Assembly: GCA_964016885.1 (NCBI GenBank)
Contig: OZ024759.1
Location: forward strand, 31,620,001 to 31,684,000
Length of the DNA: 64,000 bases
Direction of reading: 5' to 3'
Source: Eledone cirrhosa
Taxonomy: Eukaryota
The notes under the pieces were generated by a model. That model had not been told where the DNA came from and made no database searches. It saw only the letters and a list, made by a program, of their open reading frames with translations. The position numbers and the translations under genes are program-made. This document shows positions 26,201 to 61,165 of the stretch, piece after piece. The stretch's first letter is position 1, and each line of letters opens with the position of its first letter.

Positions 26201-26337
26201 ACTCAGAGACATCCAGTCGGAACCGAAATTAAATACGATGGATGTTTGCAATGTAAGAAATTAATGTAAATTACCACAAAATCTGCTTTCGGGATGCCGC
26301 TGTGGTTTTGATCTTCGTCTGTCTTGTCGGCCGCCAT
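18326..26337 (-). CDS. VBP1: Prefoldin subunit 3 / VHL-binding protein 1, 6 coding exons, 186 aa
   Basis: Exons 26275-26337 (MAADK..GIPKADFV), 22051-22178 (EDVEHFM..KYKFMDYNL), 21175-21241 (LKTQIPDIK..), 20351-20449 (..FLLSDLLYAKAKIPPTDKVCLWLG), 19887-20025 (ANVMLEYSLDDA..FLRDQITTLEV), 18326-18390 (NMARVYNWDVKRR..stop). All introns are GT-AG with consistent phases; total 561 nt. Confidence 0.95.
18748..19050 (-). mobile_element. RTE-clade LINE 3' fragment (inside VBP1 intron 5)
   Basis: Translation ELRERLSIRGIKCCVQERRLRWYRHVMRM...GRPKKTWDVVIKAD...DRDLWR is the typical RTE ORF C-terminus. Confidence 0.8.
19226..19423. mobile_element. ~200-bp TTAA-flanked MITE (piggyBac-like ends); copies at 17433-17636, 22567-22777, 36432-36636, 43030-43232, 51134-51347, 60286-60475
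   Basis: TTAA|CCCTTTAGCATTT ... AAATGCTAAAGGG|TTAA: terminal inverted repeat with TTAA on both sides, and a conserved interior across at least 7 copies in both orientations. Confidence 0.8.
23058..23737 (+). repeat. ~105-bp diverged tandem repeat, about 6 units; related copies inverted at about 16255-16500 and 52585-53000
   Basis: Recurring GTTGTTACAGCTC..CACCTATGTAGGTTTAGCTG..CTCCTACAAGGTTGCATCTCATAGGAGGTTTCT. Confidence 0.85.
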
Positions 26338-26378
26338 GCTGTATTATCAATTCTCGCGAGATTCTCTCGAGAAACAAT
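26338..26378. promoter_or_regulatory. 41-bp inter-ATG spacer, probable bidirectional promoter core of VBP1 and CUL5
   Basis: Perfect palindrome TCTCGCGAGA at 26352-26361 and a 1-mismatch copy TCTCTCGAGA at 26363-26372, lying between divergent start codons at 26337 and 26379. Confidence 0.75.
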
Positions 26379-29242
26379 ATGGCGATGTTAAAGGTGAGTT
26401 CAATGATCTTTGCTTGCTCCACATTCTAGTTGGACATTTTACCTGCTTATTCTTCTTAAATCTTCCTCTATTTTCACCCTGATCAATGCTAATGTTTGCT
26501 CCTGTGTTTTGTGTATCTATTTTGTGCTTTTGTTTTCAATTTATATCTACAATAACTGCTGCAAGAAACTCAATGCTTCAAAACTTACGGTCCGGACCTG
26601 CTTTCAGTATTCCTATCAACTACAACAATACACGTTTTATTATAAAACTGCTCCCCCAAGACAGTAGTTAGCTAAGCACATGCATTATATTTACGTACAC
26701 CGATTATATATATGTAATTTACTTTTATAACATAAGTCGCAGTTAATCTGCGATCTATTGCTTTTAATGTTCAACAAACTATGACTAATCGAAGCCATTT
26801 AATGACAACTGGTCGTAAATAATAATTTTCCTAGTTTCCTCCGTATAAAAACTAGAAAAATGGACTGCCGTTTTCGTTTTTTTTTTTCCCGATTCTTCTA
26901 TTTAATTTATAGAACTGAGCTTTTTTTTTAAATATTATTTTATGATATTCGTTAAGAAAGGAAAATATCAATATACGAAAACAAAAAGTAATAAAACCTG
27001 GACAATCGTTATTATATATTTCTCTTTTTCGTTTGTTTATTTCTCACGCCTTTCACTCGGCCTTTGTGTCTATCTACAGACGTAAATATTTCCTTTCGAT
27101 TTTGGGAATATCTAGCATAATTTCCCCACATACCTTCACTTGTATGTATCTGTCATAATCGTTTAATGGTTGGTGCTTCTAGTCACCTTGTAATTTTAAG
27201 AGGTTTACTGTGTATGTGTGTGTATATAAATATATATATATATTGGTGGGGTAGAGGATCGACTGAGCTCAGGCAGTTTCGGCTAGTAATATATGTATAT
27301 ATATATATAATAATACTAATAAAAAATGACGATTTCTTACAACTCCTGTATATATATACTGGTTTTAGTAATTACAATACGACTATGCTGGAGCACCGCC
27401 TTGGTTAAGTCGATCATATCGACCCCAGCTCACATTTTTTCAGATCTGTTACTTATTCTATCGGCTTCATATATATATATATATATATATATATGCGGTT
27501 TCATGTGGTACAGGATGTTAAGAATTAAGGAAAGTTGAGAGTGTAGCTATTACTATACAACATAAAACCCTACGATATATATATATATATATATATCGCA
27601 GGGTTTTATGTTGTATAGTAGTAGCTACACTCAACTTTCCTTAATTCTTAACGTCTTGTACCACATGAAATCGCATTAACAAGACAAAAGTACAAAACAA
27701 CTCTATGACTGCATCACATTACAATAATAAAGTCTTTACTCAAATACTGCAAATTTCCATAACAATCAGTCCACTAGTAAAGGTTAATATAAAGCTACTT
27801 TACACTATCTACTAGTAAAGATAAATTAACATATTTTCTGCTAAATCATTACAAGATGACTAGGGTTAAAGCATGGCGAACTAAGTTGAATAATGGCCTT
27901 GCCATTAGTAACATCTTATCCACATAAATATATATATATATATATTATTATTATCACTCTGCTTCTTAAGGATGCCGACTATGGTGAAGTACCAAACGTA
28001 TAATCGCACATCGCTAACCGGACCCAAATAGTAGTTCAAATCCCGCCGAGGTTAACTTTGCCGTTCATCCTTAAGGCGATCGATAAAATAAAGTACCAGT
28101 AATGTACTGGGGTCGATTTAATTGACTTTCCCCCTCCCCTCAAATTGCTGGCCTTGTGCCTAAATCAGAAACCAATATTAGCATTGAGTGCTGAAACTGG
28201 TGAACCCTCACTAACTAGACGTTGTACACCAACACATTACTATCATCATCATCATCTTACGTATGCTTTTCCCTGCTTGCAAGGGTGTGACACTATACAT
28301 ACACACATATATATATATATAGTGCAAATTTATACATATATATATATGTGTGTGTGTATGTATGTATGTATTTGACCCAAGTTGTGAAATATAACATCAC
28401 TACCACCACTAGAAAATACTGGTTATATATATGAATATATATATATGTATGTGTGTGTGTAAAAACAGTATTCATATTATATTACATTAATTAATATCTT
28501 CAAAATAATAGAAAATAAACTGATTCTTTTAATTATTTCCTTGTTAATTACCAAGAAAAATAAATTCCAGCCACTCTTGTCTGACTATCGGCACAGCAGC
28601 CTCTCTTTCTTTTTCCTTCTCTTTATCTCTATCTCTCTCTTTTCTCTCATATCGGATTAACAATTTTAAAAGTAACATACATCTTTTCTGATTTAGAACT
28701 AAATAAAATGGTTTCTAATTTAGGCACAAGGCCAGCAATTTTGGTGAAGATGGAAGGAGAGAGAAAGTTTATTATATCGACCTCCAATGATTGCTTGGTT
28801 CTTTATTTTATCGATCCTGGAAAGATGAAAGATAAAGTTGACCTCGGCGGGATTTGAACTCATGACGCAGAAAGTCGTAACTAAATACCGCAAGGCATTT
28901 GTCCTACACTCTCAATAATAAGAACTGGACCGTGTACCGTCGCTATATTTAGTGTCAAGATCCCCCTCATCTCTCTATCTCACTCTCCTCTCTCTTCCCT
29001 TGCAATAGTTCTAAATAATTTTAAATTAGTGATATCTTGTTTGGTATATATATGTATATATATATATATGACTTAGTACGTTCTGTCAAACTTGAACCAT
29101 TTCAATGGTGAGACGGTTTAAGCTTCACCGTTGGGTTTATATGTATTATCATGATTTCTACATACTACTTTTCTTAAATTAGGAAGTACTAAATTGAATA
29201 ATGGTTTTACTGGTCTCAGTAATTTCTTATCTCTCTCACTCA

Positions 29243-29313
<71 letters not shown>

Positions 29314-32300
29314 TAAGAAAAACTAGACCCATTATCCTAACAAAATTCCATCACCTTCTTATCTCTCTCCCACATTCCTCTCTCTTTTCTTATCTCCATC
29401 TTTCTTTCAACTGTTCAAAGAAACATTAATCTTGTTTATATAAAATAAAGTTTTAAGAAATAGGACCATTATACCTACTACTGGGCAATTCTGTCACCCC
29501 TATTCCCCCCTCTCTCACTCCCACCTGTTCCAAATAACATTAAACTAGAAATATTTAAAAAATAGAAGAAATTATTTTATTAAAATAAATTTTGTAATCT
29601 TTTTCAATATGTGCTCTTATGATTATTTAATAATTAGTTTATGAGAGAGGGTGGTGGATTGGCAGAATTGGTAGAGCGTTGGGTAAAATGTGACGGCAGT
29701 ATTTGTTCTGGTTCTTTACATTCTAAGTTCAAATCTCATCAAGGTCGACTTCGCTTCTCATCCTTCCAAAGTTGATGAAATTAAATACCAGTCAAGTACT
29801 GGGTTTGATATAATCAACTTTGTCCTTCACCCAAATTTGCTGGCCTTGTACCTAAATTAAAAATCAGTGATTACCGTATTTCCCGGCGCCGAAGACGCTT
29901 CATCCTCGAAGACACACCCTAATTTCGACAACCAAAAATTTGAAGAAGAAAAAACAACCTTCGACCTCCAGGATGCATGGTAGATTTTTGAGACTTATTT
30001 TAGGAAAAAGTAGCATCTTCGATGCCAGGAAATACAATAATTAGTTTTTGTGGGTCACAGGAACCTCTCCTCACCGCTGTCAAGCGGAGGAAACTGGCGT
30101 GATTTGGCCACGTCATACAACATGATAGTCTGTGCAAGATCGTCATGCAAGGCACCATTGAAGGTGGACGCAGGAGGGAACGCCAAGCCAAAACTGGTTG
30201 GACAATGTAAAAGAATGGACACAAATGACGACACCTCCCCTCTCTCTCTCTCTGCAGTAACCTCTGTGTGAGTGTATGTGTGAAGGGGGTTAGGGTATGT
30301 GTCTGTGTGTACAAGGGTCGGCAGAAAAGTTAATAGGATGACTATGAAGGATTGATGCTAGAGCAGTGAAATATTGTCTGCATTAATTTCAACTCATTAA
30401 TAATAACTGCATTGTTTCTTTCCAGGAACTATGTTGAAAAATAAACCTCATTTAGTCATTCCATGAGAGTATCTTGGTCAGCCTAGGAACTTTTCAGCCC
30501 GCCCACATATGTTAGGGTATGTGTGTCAGTAAAAAAATGCTTCTAAAACCCATTAAAATAATATTTCATTGGAAATCAATGACTCCAGATATTGTACACC
30601 TTTTTTATATTGATTTTGATTTTCCCCCACCACATGTTTCTTGTCTTATACATAAATATATACGGTAATTAGTTCTCGGTTATTTAATGTCTTTACATAT
30701 TTGCAATTAACTATACATTTTTTTTTATTTATGTTTTTCCAGCAAGGTCAATCGCAATTTGAAGAAAAATGGCCTACTATGCGCCCCACAGTTCTGAAAC
30801 TTTTACGCCAAGAAAGAGTTACAAAATTCGAATGGCAAGAATTGTTTTGGTAAGTTTTTTTTTTTAAATTTATCACAATGTATGTTAACCTGCGGTCATT
30901 AGGGCCAAAGGCAGATTAAACTTCCATGGGTGTCCTGGCTGAAAATATTTTCAGGGGCGTTGTGTATTCACCATTGTAGCAAAAAAAAGTTCTTTTTAAT
31001 ATTTCGGGACTCTTTAGATATGGTGGGGTCCCTTGGCTGTGGTTCAATTAGTCCCCTCTGCCATGACCTAACACTGGTTAAGGCACTGGATTAAATACCT
31101 TGGTATTTGTCTCAGTTCATGACATTCTGAGTTCAAATCATGCCGAGGTCCATTTCGCCGTTCATCCCATTTAATACAGAACGTCATTACTATGGGGCTC
31201 CCCTCGATTCAAGAGATAAGGGCTCATGGCATATGATTTATTATAATTTATGCATAAGTATGTATGTAATTTATTATAAAAATTGTGAAGAGAAATAGAA
31301 TAATCTGGTTGGGTCATGTGTTGATGAAAGTGACTGGGTGAGATGATGTGGAAATGAATGTGGAAGGAAGTAGACATGGCTAAAGATGATGGAGGAGGAA
31401 ATGAAAGCCAAGGGGTTAGTGAGGAGGTGATATGAAGATCATGGGACAGGGTAAAGGAGAAGCTTGACATGGGGCCTGCAAAGCTAACCCTTTCTTTAGT
31501 TGGGTGGGGATGACCTTAAAACACTTGTTATAACTAAGTATGTCATTCATCATAATATACCGTATATACTCGTGTGAAAGTCAAATTTTTTACACCATTT
31601 TTTAAGGGTTAAATTTATTGTGTAGACAGTTAAAAGGCTACTACTACTTGAAATTCAAGTTAGGAACCAAAGTACCGTATCAGTAGCAGAAGCCCAACTG
31701 CTCTCTAAACAAATAAAACAAAAACACAATAAGTTACAGTAATATTACCGATTCTATGTATCAAAACAGACGTCCTAGTCATTATCATCATCATCGTTTA
31801 ACGTCCATCTTCCATGCTAGCATGGGTTGGCCGGTTTTTCCCACTTGAGACAAGATTGCTTGGGTAACCGTGTCTCACTTGTACAGAACTAGTAAAATAA
31901 CAAAACACATGAAGACCATGTAGCTCTTATAAATATTTACACTTGCTCTTTTACTCCTATCCATCAAACTTTTGGCACAAGTTTGGGTAAATCTTTAGTT
32001 TCAGACATGTATTTGCAATATTATAGATTTGTCTTAGATTCATGACGATTTTGTAACAGTGTTATTTCTACATACAAGATGATATCTTGACCTACAAACG
32101 TTGACCTGTTATCGGTGAAATACTAGGGTCAACTTTTATACGAGGTCTATGGAAAATTCCAGATTTTTAGGCCAAAATTAGGGGGGTCGACTTTTACATG
32201 AGTTCGACTATTACTTGAGTATATATGGTATATTCATTTAGCCCTTGTTATTGTACTGGTTTGAGTCTTTGGGCTGTTGGCATGCTTGGACACCGCCTTT

Positions 32301-58559: not shown

Positions 58560-59823
58560 ATAATAATAATAATAATGAAATTATTGTGTAAAGTGCTCAG
58601 GTGCACTACAACTCGTCAAAGGTGCATGTATAGTACATAGAATAATACACAAATGTCAGGGAAGTGAATAGTGTATGTGTCATGATATACATGTGTGTAT
58701 GTATATGGAGGGGGAACATTAGGTGTAATGTTGGCGAATCTCAGGAAGCATGGAGGCCTTAAAAGATGCAGTGTCTCGACAGCTAACAACCGATGCAGGT
58801 AGTTTGTTCCATGCTTCAGCAACTGAGCGTGAAAAAATGTTTCCGAAAGTCATGGGAACTGTACTGTTTTCTGACTTTGTGGGCATGCCCACGTGTGTTA
58901 GACACATGGAAATCAAAAAGATACTCAGGGTTGTTGTTGGCAAGATGGTTAACAATTTTGTGGGTGTTTACCAAGTCAGTTGCCAGGCGTTGGAGCTTCA
59001 ATGTATCCATGCCCAGGGAAGCAAGGCGCTCAGAGTATGGTAGATGCCTGATGGAGGCTATTTGCTTGGTTGCACGTCTCTGAACAGTTTCCAGGCAGTC
59101 AATGTTCTGAGCAAGATAGGGGTTCCAGACCGGTGATGCAAATTCTAAGTGTGGCCGCACTATAGCCATGTACAGCCTTAAATAGATAGCTGGAGAGCGG
59201 CTGACAAAGGTCTTGACAATTTTAGAGATGTGCTTCGTCCAATGCAAATCGCTGCTGACCGTAATGCCCAGGTCACGTTCACAAGAAGACTTCTTGATAT
59301 TAGTGCTGTGGAGGGAGTATGTGGACGGTGGGTTTTTACTCCCAAAATGCATAGTGGTGCACTTGTCCACAGCTAGCTTGACTTGCCAGTCTGAGTTCCA
59401 TTGTTGCATTGTGTTCAGGTCAGACTGCAAGCAAGATCTATAGTATTCAGGATCTGTCCTTTTTATCTCAAGGTATAGCTTGATGTCATCTGCATATTTC
59501 AGTACTGTGGCATTCTTTAAGTTGGCATCTATGTCATTAATATATGCCACAAACAAAAGGGGGGCAAGAACAGATCCCTGTGGTACACCAGATGACATCT
59601 CATATGGTGAGGAATGCTGTCCCAAAACTGTGACTACCTCTCTTCGACTGAGAATGATGGACTTCAACCAGTTAAAAAGATCATCCTTCACGCCCATTGC
59701 AGAGAGTTTTTCCATAAGCCTTTTGTGTGGCACAGAATTGAAAACTTTCGCAAAGTCAAGGTAAACAACATCCACCCATGAGCCGCCATCAGTGATCCGG
59801 GTGATGTCTTCAAGAAACTCGGT
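58560..59823 (-). mobile_element. 5'-truncated CR1-clade LINE (RT domain to 3' UTR and (ATT)n tail)
   Basis: Translation has VDVVYLDFAK.F..VPH, SGVPQGSVLAPLLF, YADD, ERDLGI, VRPHLEFASPVW.P, LE.VQRRATK. A frameshift near 58820 leads to AWNKLP, with the stop at 58719. The 3' UTR ends in GTGCACCTGAGCAC...(ATT)n. Confidence 0.88.
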
Positions 59824-61165
59824 AATATATATATACACACACACACATATATGTAGGTTTCCAGATTGAGGTATGGGTAACCATAGTTAAAAAAGATACG
59901 TTGGTAGAGTACAGGTATCTATGTTATATATATATAAATTTTTTTATAATTTAGAAAGAATAAAAATATATTTTAAAAAATGAGGGCATGGGGCCCTAAT
60001 TTACAGGTAAGTCCAGCACTTCTACAGCCCGATGCTCTTTCTAACACCTACCACTCTGACAGATGATCGCAGATAAACAATAGCATTATGGTGGTGGTGG
60101 TGGTGAGGAGCAAAAAGAGGAGAATATATGGGGAGGGTGTTAGAAGCTGTTGACTCTTTAAGCTGACAGCTCAATGTCATAACATCTCAGATATGTTCTA
60201 CCTTCTCACTTTTCTTAACAACACAAATGCTGTAGTCTACTGTATGAGGGCCGGCTGAAAAGTTAATAGACTGACTAATAACTAACCCTTTAGCATTTAA
60301 ACCGGCCAGAATTCCTCTTTCTGTTCAAACCGGCTGTAACTGGCTACTCATACTGATGTTAAGGTATTGTTCTCAAAATAAATAATATCAAAATCTCATA
60401 GATTCGATATTATGTGAGATAGTCTTTACTGTGAAAATATAATAGTATATATAGAATAACGTAAATGTTAAAGGGTTAATGATTAATAATTTTAGTAAAT
60501 CTTTTACGAATTAATTTAAATAGAATGTTTTTCATTAGAAATATGGTCACAAAAGAGTTATTAAGGGCCAAAACACTCACTTGAGAGGGAGGTTTCTTCC
60601 CTAACAACCTTCTGCTTTCCAGCCCTTCTAAGGGCTGAAACACTCGCTTGAGAGGCAAGTTTCTTCTCTGAAGACATTCTGCTGCCCAGCTCTCCTGAGA
60701 GTTTCTTACCACCTAACAACACAAATATTAGAAGCTATAATTACTGAAAGAAGCCCAAGTAATTATAGATTTGATTAATATATATATATATTAATGACAG
60801 GAGAGGTGTAAATAAAACTATTTCCTGTACTTCCTGAAGCAATTAAAGTGTGAATAATACCTTTATTATTTATTATAATGTGGTTGTGTAAATACACTAG
60901 TATGTGGTTATATATGACCCACATATATTATCGTCATTGTTTTAACATCTGCTTTCTCTGCTAATGAGGATTGGAGAGGTTTGGTATGGTATGTATCCAT
61001 AACTCCTGAGGAGTCGTAGGGGCCAAAATTTCAACTAACTGTATCCCATACCAGACGATGTACACACAGCACCAAATATGGGTATTGACCAATCAGTGCA
61101 CACTCCCAACCATGCTTGCACTCACACACATACAACAGGCACATACACACACACACACACATATA

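Follow-up and report, generated by a model that had tools for sequence, protein, structure and literature searches.

How are two genes started when their start codons lie 41 bp apart and face away from each other? This question is raised by VBP1 and CUL5 of the octopus Eledone cirrhosa, which were analysed in a window of 64,000 nt (assembly GCA_964016885.1, contig OZ024759.1, positions 31,620,001 to 31,684,000 of the forward strand); coordinates below are those of the window unless another contig is named. The VBP1 start codon is read from a CAT at 26335-26337 (minus strand) and the CUL5 start codon from an ATG at 26379-26381 (plus strand), and the 41-bp spacer between them occupies 26338-26378. 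Our analysis points to an answer in two parts which, taken together, we consider probable: VBP1 and CUL5 form an ancient compact pair with overlapping transcripts, and CUL5 exon 1 was captured through splicing by a family of retrotransposons with long terminal repeats (LTRs).

The gene structures were established by protein mapping. An earlier note on this DNA, made from the sequence, had proposed divergent ATGs at 26337 and 26379, each opening a short exon with a good donor that splices in frame to downstream exons, and both statements were reproduced. VBP1, encoding prefoldin subunit 3, spans 18326-26337 on the minus strand in six coding exons, as determined by tblastn with the Argonauta prefoldin-3, which maps with high identity to five exons beyond the first; the stop codon was located. 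Its coding exon 1 (26275-26337, minus strand) specifies 21 residues (MAADKTDEDQNHSGIPKADFV), ends at a GTAATT donor and joins exon 2 at 22178 in frame. CUL5 spans 26379-53486 on the plus strand in 18 coding exons, of which the first (26379-26393, plus strand) encodes MAMLK, ends at a GTGAGT donor and joins in frame to exon 2 (30743-30849, plus strand). The Argonauta cullin-5 maps with high identity to the 17 further exons (to 53483). Pfam recognised Cullin and Cullin_Nedd8 in CUL5 and Prefoldin on VBP1 exon 5 (7.5e-11), and because the Argonauta cullin matches solved human Cullin-5 chains (E=0) the gene is taken to be Cullin-5. The MAMLK-type N terminus recurs in records of Argonauta, Sinanodonta, Lingula, Argopecten and Ostrea, and an exon 1 of this type occurs in records from cephalopods, bivalves, gastropods and brachiopods.

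Transcription across the spacer was read from the contigs of a single run (X4), which was treated as RNA because its contigs are spliced; the kind of run is not on record, and the contigs are unstranded and built from 31-letter words (run index). A contig of 861 nt (depth 207) matches 26612-26274 in an unbroken stretch of 339 letters with 0 differences and 0 gaps, leaves the genome at the VBP1 donor at 26274 and continues into exon 2 at the same depth, and VBP1 intron 1 is almost without RNA coverage. For CUL5, a contig of 2777 nt (depth 45) starts with the AG of the exon 2 acceptor (30741) and runs through exon 2 into exon 3 letters. Spliced RNAs of both genes are present in this one run. Since a contig of 31-letter words crosses the spacer, RNAs must either span it or overlap by at least 30 nt; a contig over both genes does not prove a single transcript. 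A run of a related organism (X5) covers the bin in which the spacer lies.

The extent of CUL5 exon 1 was indicated by copies elsewhere in the genome. The spacer carries a CGCG motif and a near copy of it (described below), and a tight pattern search found the same double motif at two other places. DNA searches recovered at least 10 copies, at no fewer than nine places, of an element of ~130 bp that matches 26341-26393 at 81-97% over 33-59 nt. The block common to the host and these copies is 53 bp long (26341-26393, plus strand) and would represent CUL5 exon 1 as captured, with at least 38 nt of 5' untranslated region (UTR) and 15 nt of coding sequence. It lies in sense orientation and, in nine of the 10 copies, runs to the last base of CUL5 exon 1, at the donor, and is followed by LTR sequence; the tenth copy (C5) has a 9-nt deletion at the junction, and two of the 10 have deletions in the shared block. 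Provided that the block entered the LTR as an exon, CUL5 exon 1 extended at least to 26341, which is 3 nt from the VBP1 ATG. An exon of this length would place the CGCG motif in the CUL5 5' UTR, and any VBP1 UTR longer than 3 nt would overlap the exon. We infer that CUL5 transcription begins at or to the left of 26341, giving a 5' UTR of at least 38 nt, in which case the VBP1 RNA must start inside the CUL5 transcribed region. The VBP1 and CUL5 transcripts thus likely overlap head-to-head with the CGCG motif within their 5' UTRs. The earlier note had left a choice between very short 5' UTRs and such an overlap; the RNA contig and the LTR copies favour the overlap and speak against the very short UTRs.

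The dispersed copies are, judged by their sequence features, LTRs of a decayed Ty3/Gypsy retrotransposon family. Frames resembling gag and reverse transcriptase (RT) lie behind the C5 copy (RVT_1, 1.3e-7), and frames resembling the end of an integrase, recognised by eye and without a Pfam match, precede the C1 copy. The internal region of the copies is 45-57% alike in translation to that of a sister element, L286, which carries protease, RT and rve in order between two LTRs. The copies have partly decayed TG...CA ends, an AATAAA and a short target duplication, with 5-bp direct repeats flanking the solo copies C4:6400123 and C1:102298044, and the block was found in 5' LTRs, 3' LTRs and solo LTRs. 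Two other readings of the look-alike loci were rejected: for paralogues of CUL5 or VBP1, tblastn gave no matches, and for a structured RNA, Rfam gave no match over the block in seven loci and its folds are unremarkable (z -1.35 and -1.36).

The motif within the spacer was compared with known CGCG promoters. The exact element TCTCGCGAGA, located by motif search at 26352-26361, is separated by 14 nt from the ATG of VBP1 and by 17 nt from that of CUL5, and it is the sole exact match in the window. A variant with one mismatch, TCTCTCGAGA, which contains TCTCG half-sites, follows at 26363-26372. These two are the only window matches at one mismatch or fewer (shuffle mean 0.27; reached in 5 of 100 shuffles), and the chance of finding the motif in a given 41 bp is ~5e-6, a post hoc figure based on a genome density of 486 sites in 3.0 Gb. 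The start region sits in a CpG-rich island at 24000-28000, where the observed/expected CpG ratio is 0.8-1.09 per kb, compared with 0.49 over the window and mostly 0.2-0.6 in both gene bodies, which points, though only indirectly, to an unmethylated state.

In the human LuBiDi reporter, TCTCTCGAGA is the exact mutant that abolishes dual activity (Mahpour 2018, PMC6192621). The tandem elements proposed earlier are therefore reduced to one canonical copy plus a variant that is inactive in the human reporter. In an octopus the variant may still matter, because it retains TCTCG half-sites of the kind to which the BEN domain of BANP binds preferentially in vitro (PMC10206803). In human cells transcription starts 20-70 nt away from the CGCG element, mainly at 28 and 51 nt in a one-copy reporter (PMC6192621), whereas the ATGs here are only 14 and 17 nt away, and start sites of the human type would fall inside coding sequence. 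The vertebrate geometry, in which the motif is upstream of both start sites, is accordingly not supported. The locus resembles the CGCG/BANP promoters in having the exact TCTCGCGAGA in a CpG-rich stretch between housekeeping genes, and in the presence of the motif ahead of other housekeeping-type genes of this genome (3 of 16, see below); it differs in belonging to an invertebrate and in the copy number and spacing just described. Because two features fail, the tandem active copy and the start-site spacing, we do not class the VBP1-CUL5 start region as a vertebrate CGCG promoter. Of the compact bidirectional promoter that had been suggested, the data support a head-to-head pair of housekeeping genes, very compact and set in a CpG-rich island, but neither two functional CGCG elements nor the vertebrate start-site geometry.

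These findings bear on the possibility that both genes start inside the 41 bp, back to back around one or both CGCG motifs, with TISU-like UTRs of ~10 nt. The exact motif is centred in the spacer, and both ATGs stand in an ATGGCG context that resembles a YY1 site; the TISU consensus is matched at 11 of 12 positions by the VBP1 context and at 9 of 12 by the CUL5 context. Genes with the TISU element have a median 5' UTR of 12 nt and bind YY1 (PMC2518114). At human POLR1C/YIPF3 the start sites are 30 nt apart around a single element, and tandem copies draw start sites closer in the human reporter (PMC6192621). The absence of a contig break at 26393 would also be expected from a short CUL5 exon 1. 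Nevertheless, such an arrangement is unlikely. A contig of 31-letter words that crosses the spacer needs spanning RNAs or an overlap of at least 30 nt, the LTR copies carry 38 nt of the spacer joined to exon 1, the second motif copy equals the inactive human variant, and the usual spacing is 20-70 nt rather than less than 17. Furthermore, the CUL5 UTR of at least 38 nt that is indicated here exceeds the 12-nt median of TISU genes.

Decidedly unlikely, in our assessment, are promoters that lie further out, with VBP1 starting near 26612 in CUL5 intron 1 (with a long UTR or a leader exon), CUL5 perhaps using another first exon, and the motif being mere UTR. The VBP1 contig does begin at 26612, 275 nt from the ATG. 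A GTAAGT site at 26583-26588 (minus strand) in CUL5 intron 1 is a good donor that, on this explanation only, could end a VBP1 leader exon, and an AG stands just before the VBP1 ATG. The CUL5 contig forks at the exon 2 acceptor, and at a RECQL4-like and a KSR-like locus of this genome the motif stands 2.3 kb and 0.75 kb from the ATG. However, the contig is unspliced over 26588-26339 and no spliced form was seen, the purine-rich stretch before the AG would make a poor acceptor, a UTR of 275 nt would contain two upstream ATGs, and the retention of the block in the LTRs is left unexplained. In its long-UTR form a distant VBP1 promoter is compatible with overlap and may coexist with the overlapping, captured arrangement that we prefer.

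The route of capture was examined in related elements. The bases that follow the 5' LTR form the complement of an LTR-internal word, over 12 nt in the C5 copy and over 9-13 nt in 12 of the 29 sister loci scanned, and when the C5 copy is folded this primer helix appears in the best as well as the centroid structure (overall fold z 0.05). Searching for RT yielded 65 matches, with RT 47-52% identical among the 30 best other matches, and a search for the LTR-plus-primer pattern gave 45 sites and none in the control; 30 of the 45 were examined. The sister families carry the same word after the junction, together with a primer site complementary to it, and lack the MAMLK exon. In family S1 an AG stands directly before the primer word in 11 of 12 loci, the twelfth carrying an insertion, and in family S2 the AG lies two bases earlier than the word in 17 of 17 loci. 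A pyrimidine tract (0.68-0.73) precedes the AG in both families, and a branch-like motif was present in 26 of the 30 loci examined; true CUL5 acceptors score 0.5-0.95 on a near-identical pyrimidine measure. As copies within a family are not independent, this acceptor evidence counts as two of three families. At L255 (C1:18173555) the AG of an S1 LTR is split from its primer word by a common short repeat that inserted exactly there.

Self-priming is known from the Ty3/Gypsy elements Tf1 and Tj1 (PMC4600332). The present elements resemble these and Sushi-type elements in being without a tRNA site, in the pairing of an LTR-internal word with the 11-13 nt after the 5' LTR, in an AATAAA near the LTR end and in the T-rich U3 of two sister families. 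They differ in that the AATAAA is itself part of the self-primer word, in front of which stands either a branch-pyrimidine-AG tract or a host exon.

A mechanism consistent with these features can be proposed. CUL5 exon 1 would have been spliced onto an acceptor in the LTR, replacing an intron-like part, and the spliced exon 1-LTR RNA would have been recopied into the U3 part during reverse transcription. The element would thereby have gained a portable host promoter fragment, with which it would have spread to at least nine places before decaying. Flow from host to element is likely, because the MAMLK exon is present in Argonauta, bivalves, gastropods and Lingula and the copies differ by ~0.2 per site. 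Another route to the shared block is very unlikely, be it capture at the DNA level, a template switch at a brief homology with no splicing involved, or replacement of the host spacer by a fragment of the LTR. Such a route is favoured by faint similarity of the flanks on both sides (p ~0.04 in two of three tests), by a primer-site complement that reaches into the exon end, by the place of the motif in the LTR, which would be ~28 nt ahead of where the RNA probably starts, the spacing that dominates in the human reporter, and by one sister family without an acceptor-like tract. Against it, the junction coincides with the donor of the host and also with the place of the AG in two sister families, and passage from LTR to host needs a decayed transposon to have supplied by chance a coding exon that Lingula and bivalves already have. 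The similarity of host and LTR flanks was marginal at most (p 0.039, 0.39 and 0.041), and the copy-versus-copy controls were reached by 0 of 300 shuffles.

Capture of host first exons through splicing has been described for LINE-1 chimeras, which gained them by cis- or trans-splicing and whose source intronic element is gone in 15 of 17 cases (PMC13174262). As in those chimeras, for which promoter co-option was proposed, the host first exon lies here in sense orientation, ends at its donor and would be joined at an acceptor of the element, and the source element is missing from the intron, as is often so for LINE-1. The present case differs in that the element is an LTR retrotransposon, that the exon, once fixed in the LTR, was dispersed together with it as a family, and that sister LTRs carry an acceptor-like tract as a standing feature. 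A survey of the literature on promoter and exon capture by LTRs, with subscription papers thinly covered, turned up neither an LTR with a host exon fixed in it nor a self-primer preceded by an acceptor. If the capture is real, an LTR retrotransposon can swap its promoter region for a host first exon by a route described for LINE-1.

A wider proposal is possible, though we regard it as doubtful: the whole self-priming Gypsy clade would carry a 3' splice site before the primer word and be expressed by splicing onto host first exons and not from a promoter of its own, one lineage having copied CUL5 exon 1 permanently into its LTR, where the CGCG and YY1-like sites would serve as a housekeeping promoter that the element carries along. 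Under this proposal further lineages, such as L285, may carry different host exons, and LTRs of this sort would be fossil 5' ends of host mRNAs. At L273 / L285:790-1008 (C2:395414972) a purine-rich run ending in AAG stands before the same primer word, and from its sequence this run may be another captured host exon.

The pairing of the two genes appears to be old. When scaffold lengths were compared within species, with different species of one genus kept apart, the CUL5 and VBP1 records shared a scaffold length in 16 of the 16 species for which both records were listed. The shared scaffolds include ones of 122 kb (Saccoglossus), 478 kb (Capitella) and 836 kb (Nucella). Of the 10 species looked up, seven have consecutive accessions for the two genes (Nucella, Capitella, Chamberlinius, Saccoglossus, Solemya, Lingula and Gigantopelta), and in Pomacea the locus tags follow one another. 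Conservation of the pairing across molluscs had been suggested as a check, and scaffold lengths and accessions together indicate adjacency in molluscs, a brachiopod, an annelid, a millipede and a hemichordate. The VBP1-CUL5 pairing is thus likely pan-bilaterian and ancient, judging by adjacency in the records, the orientation having been read in Eledone alone. The human pair is split, with VBP1 on the X chromosome and CUL5 on chromosome 11. Among VBP1 loci in metagenomes, none of the 80 examined out of 530 confirmed loci had CUL5 by tblastn or the exact motif, and none supplied molluscan genomic context. A literature search on VBP1, CUL5 and synteny, of incomplete coverage, found no paper.

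Conserved ancient 5'-5' microsyntenic pairs (CAMPs) have been catalogued with a spacing criterion of <1 kb (Irimia 2012, PMC3514665). VBP1 and CUL5 resemble these as unrelated neighbours kept together over bilaterian phyla, here head to head at a tiny intergenic distance; the 41 bp between their start codons is far under the <1 kb criterion, and the names VBP1 and CUL5 occur 0 times in the main text of PMC3514665. Such pairs are already known, and VBP1-CUL5 would be an additional case. In the mechanism that we propose, one CpG-rich control region would be shared by the two genes, and the CGCG motif and the two ATGGCG contexts, which resemble YY1 sites, would keep the region open and serve both. 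Sharing of the motif and start contexts would explain why the pair has stayed together. If this holds, the locus offers a natural unit of 41 bp for studying how two overlapping housekeeping transcripts are started.

The activity of the CGCG motif elsewhere in the genome was assessed at individual loci. The raw genome-wide count was dropped as a test of function, being inflated by a tRNA gene array and a repeat: 93 of the 97 distinct places listed lie in the single tRNA array, and 46 of the 71 matches to the motif followed by ATGGC lie in one repeat, the remaining 25 rows showing no clear excess over the 18 of the control. Sixteen non-repeat motif loci were inspected (nine of 6 kb and seven of 3 kb, with 81 of 110 listed frames scanned), and in three of the 16 the motif stands upstream of an N-terminal exon in matching orientation, at ~140 nt in a DIP2-like, 0.75 kb in a KSR-like and 2.3 kb in a RECQL4-like gene. 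Together with the CpG-rich island around the VBP1-CUL5 starts, this lends modest support to a general promoter role of the motif, which is plausible for this genome, and a promoter grammar of CGCG plus YY1 is possible. At the same three loci (L060, L068 and L069; DIP2-, RECQL4- and KSR-like) an ATGGCG occurs within 30 nt after the CGCG motif, without a start-codon role. A profile search of the genome for the BEN domain (PF10523) gave no match, and its control was equally silent; one oyster gene is named BANP in PMC9437489. The case bears on whether the CGCG/BANP promoter grammar, so far described for vertebrates, extends back to molluscs.

Several observations weigh against the overlapping, captured pair that we favour. 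The RNA evidence on the start sites comes from unstranded contigs of a single RNA-type run of unrecorded kind. The junction of CUL5 exons 1 and 2 was not seen in the X4 contigs, and the start of the CUL5 contig at the exon 2 AG leaves room for an alternative first exon. The part of the spacer-crossing contig beyond 26393 could reflect a few unspliced CUL5 molecules, as an intronic contig of depth 2 exists. Where a primer site is present, in three host-like copies, the last ~3-5 nt of the exon also belong to the primer complement, so that microhomology could also have fixed the junction. Within the window, CUL5 intron 1 retains no element of the LTR clade; weak tblastx matches of 18-20 aa between CUL5 introns and a sister element were taken as chance. 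The third family, S3, represented by a single locus (L273/L285), has the AG preceded by a purine-rich run and no pyrimidine tract, and a T-rich U3 has been described for Sushi-clade LTRs (PMC3601003); the acceptor reading consequently rests on sequence in two families. Over 26341-26378 the distance between host and copies is 0.147 and that among copies 0.213, only a weak sign of constraint on the spacer because an unmethylated stretch also escapes CpG decay. The genome-wide motif count of 486 is not above that of the reversed control (438). Finally, in Mactra and Lineus the CUL5 and VBP1 accessions lie far from each other, and in Liolophura they are near but not consecutive.

Some further observations concern other repeats. 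The tandem array at C1:49290000-49374000 (L005-L027) has a unit of ~5 kb with several tRNA genes that end in the CGCG motif; ARAGORN, run in bacterial mode, labels two of them Leu, and by eye they look like intron-containing tRNA-Tyr. A dispersed repeat (L080-L084; C3:362571699, C7:88715726 and C7:48616390) has at its end an 18-mer in common with the spacer, and at two places its copies stand head to head as long, perfect palindromes. Since no more than this 18-mer is shared, the family of palindromes (C3:362571699 and C7:88715726) was set aside. A bacterial promoter scan was at chance level and is irrelevant here.

Other features of the window lie outside the start region. An intronless open reading frame resembling DNA polymerase lambda (12578-14344, plus strand), with BRCT, helix-hairpin-helix and Pol beta palm and thumb, converges on the 3' end of VBP1. 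A tRNA-Ser(AGA) gene detected by ARAGORN (12272-12355, minus strand) lies ~240 bp upstream of this frame on the opposite strand. A long frame at 58819-59886 (minus strand) shows motifs that by eye resemble those of a LINE reverse transcriptase.

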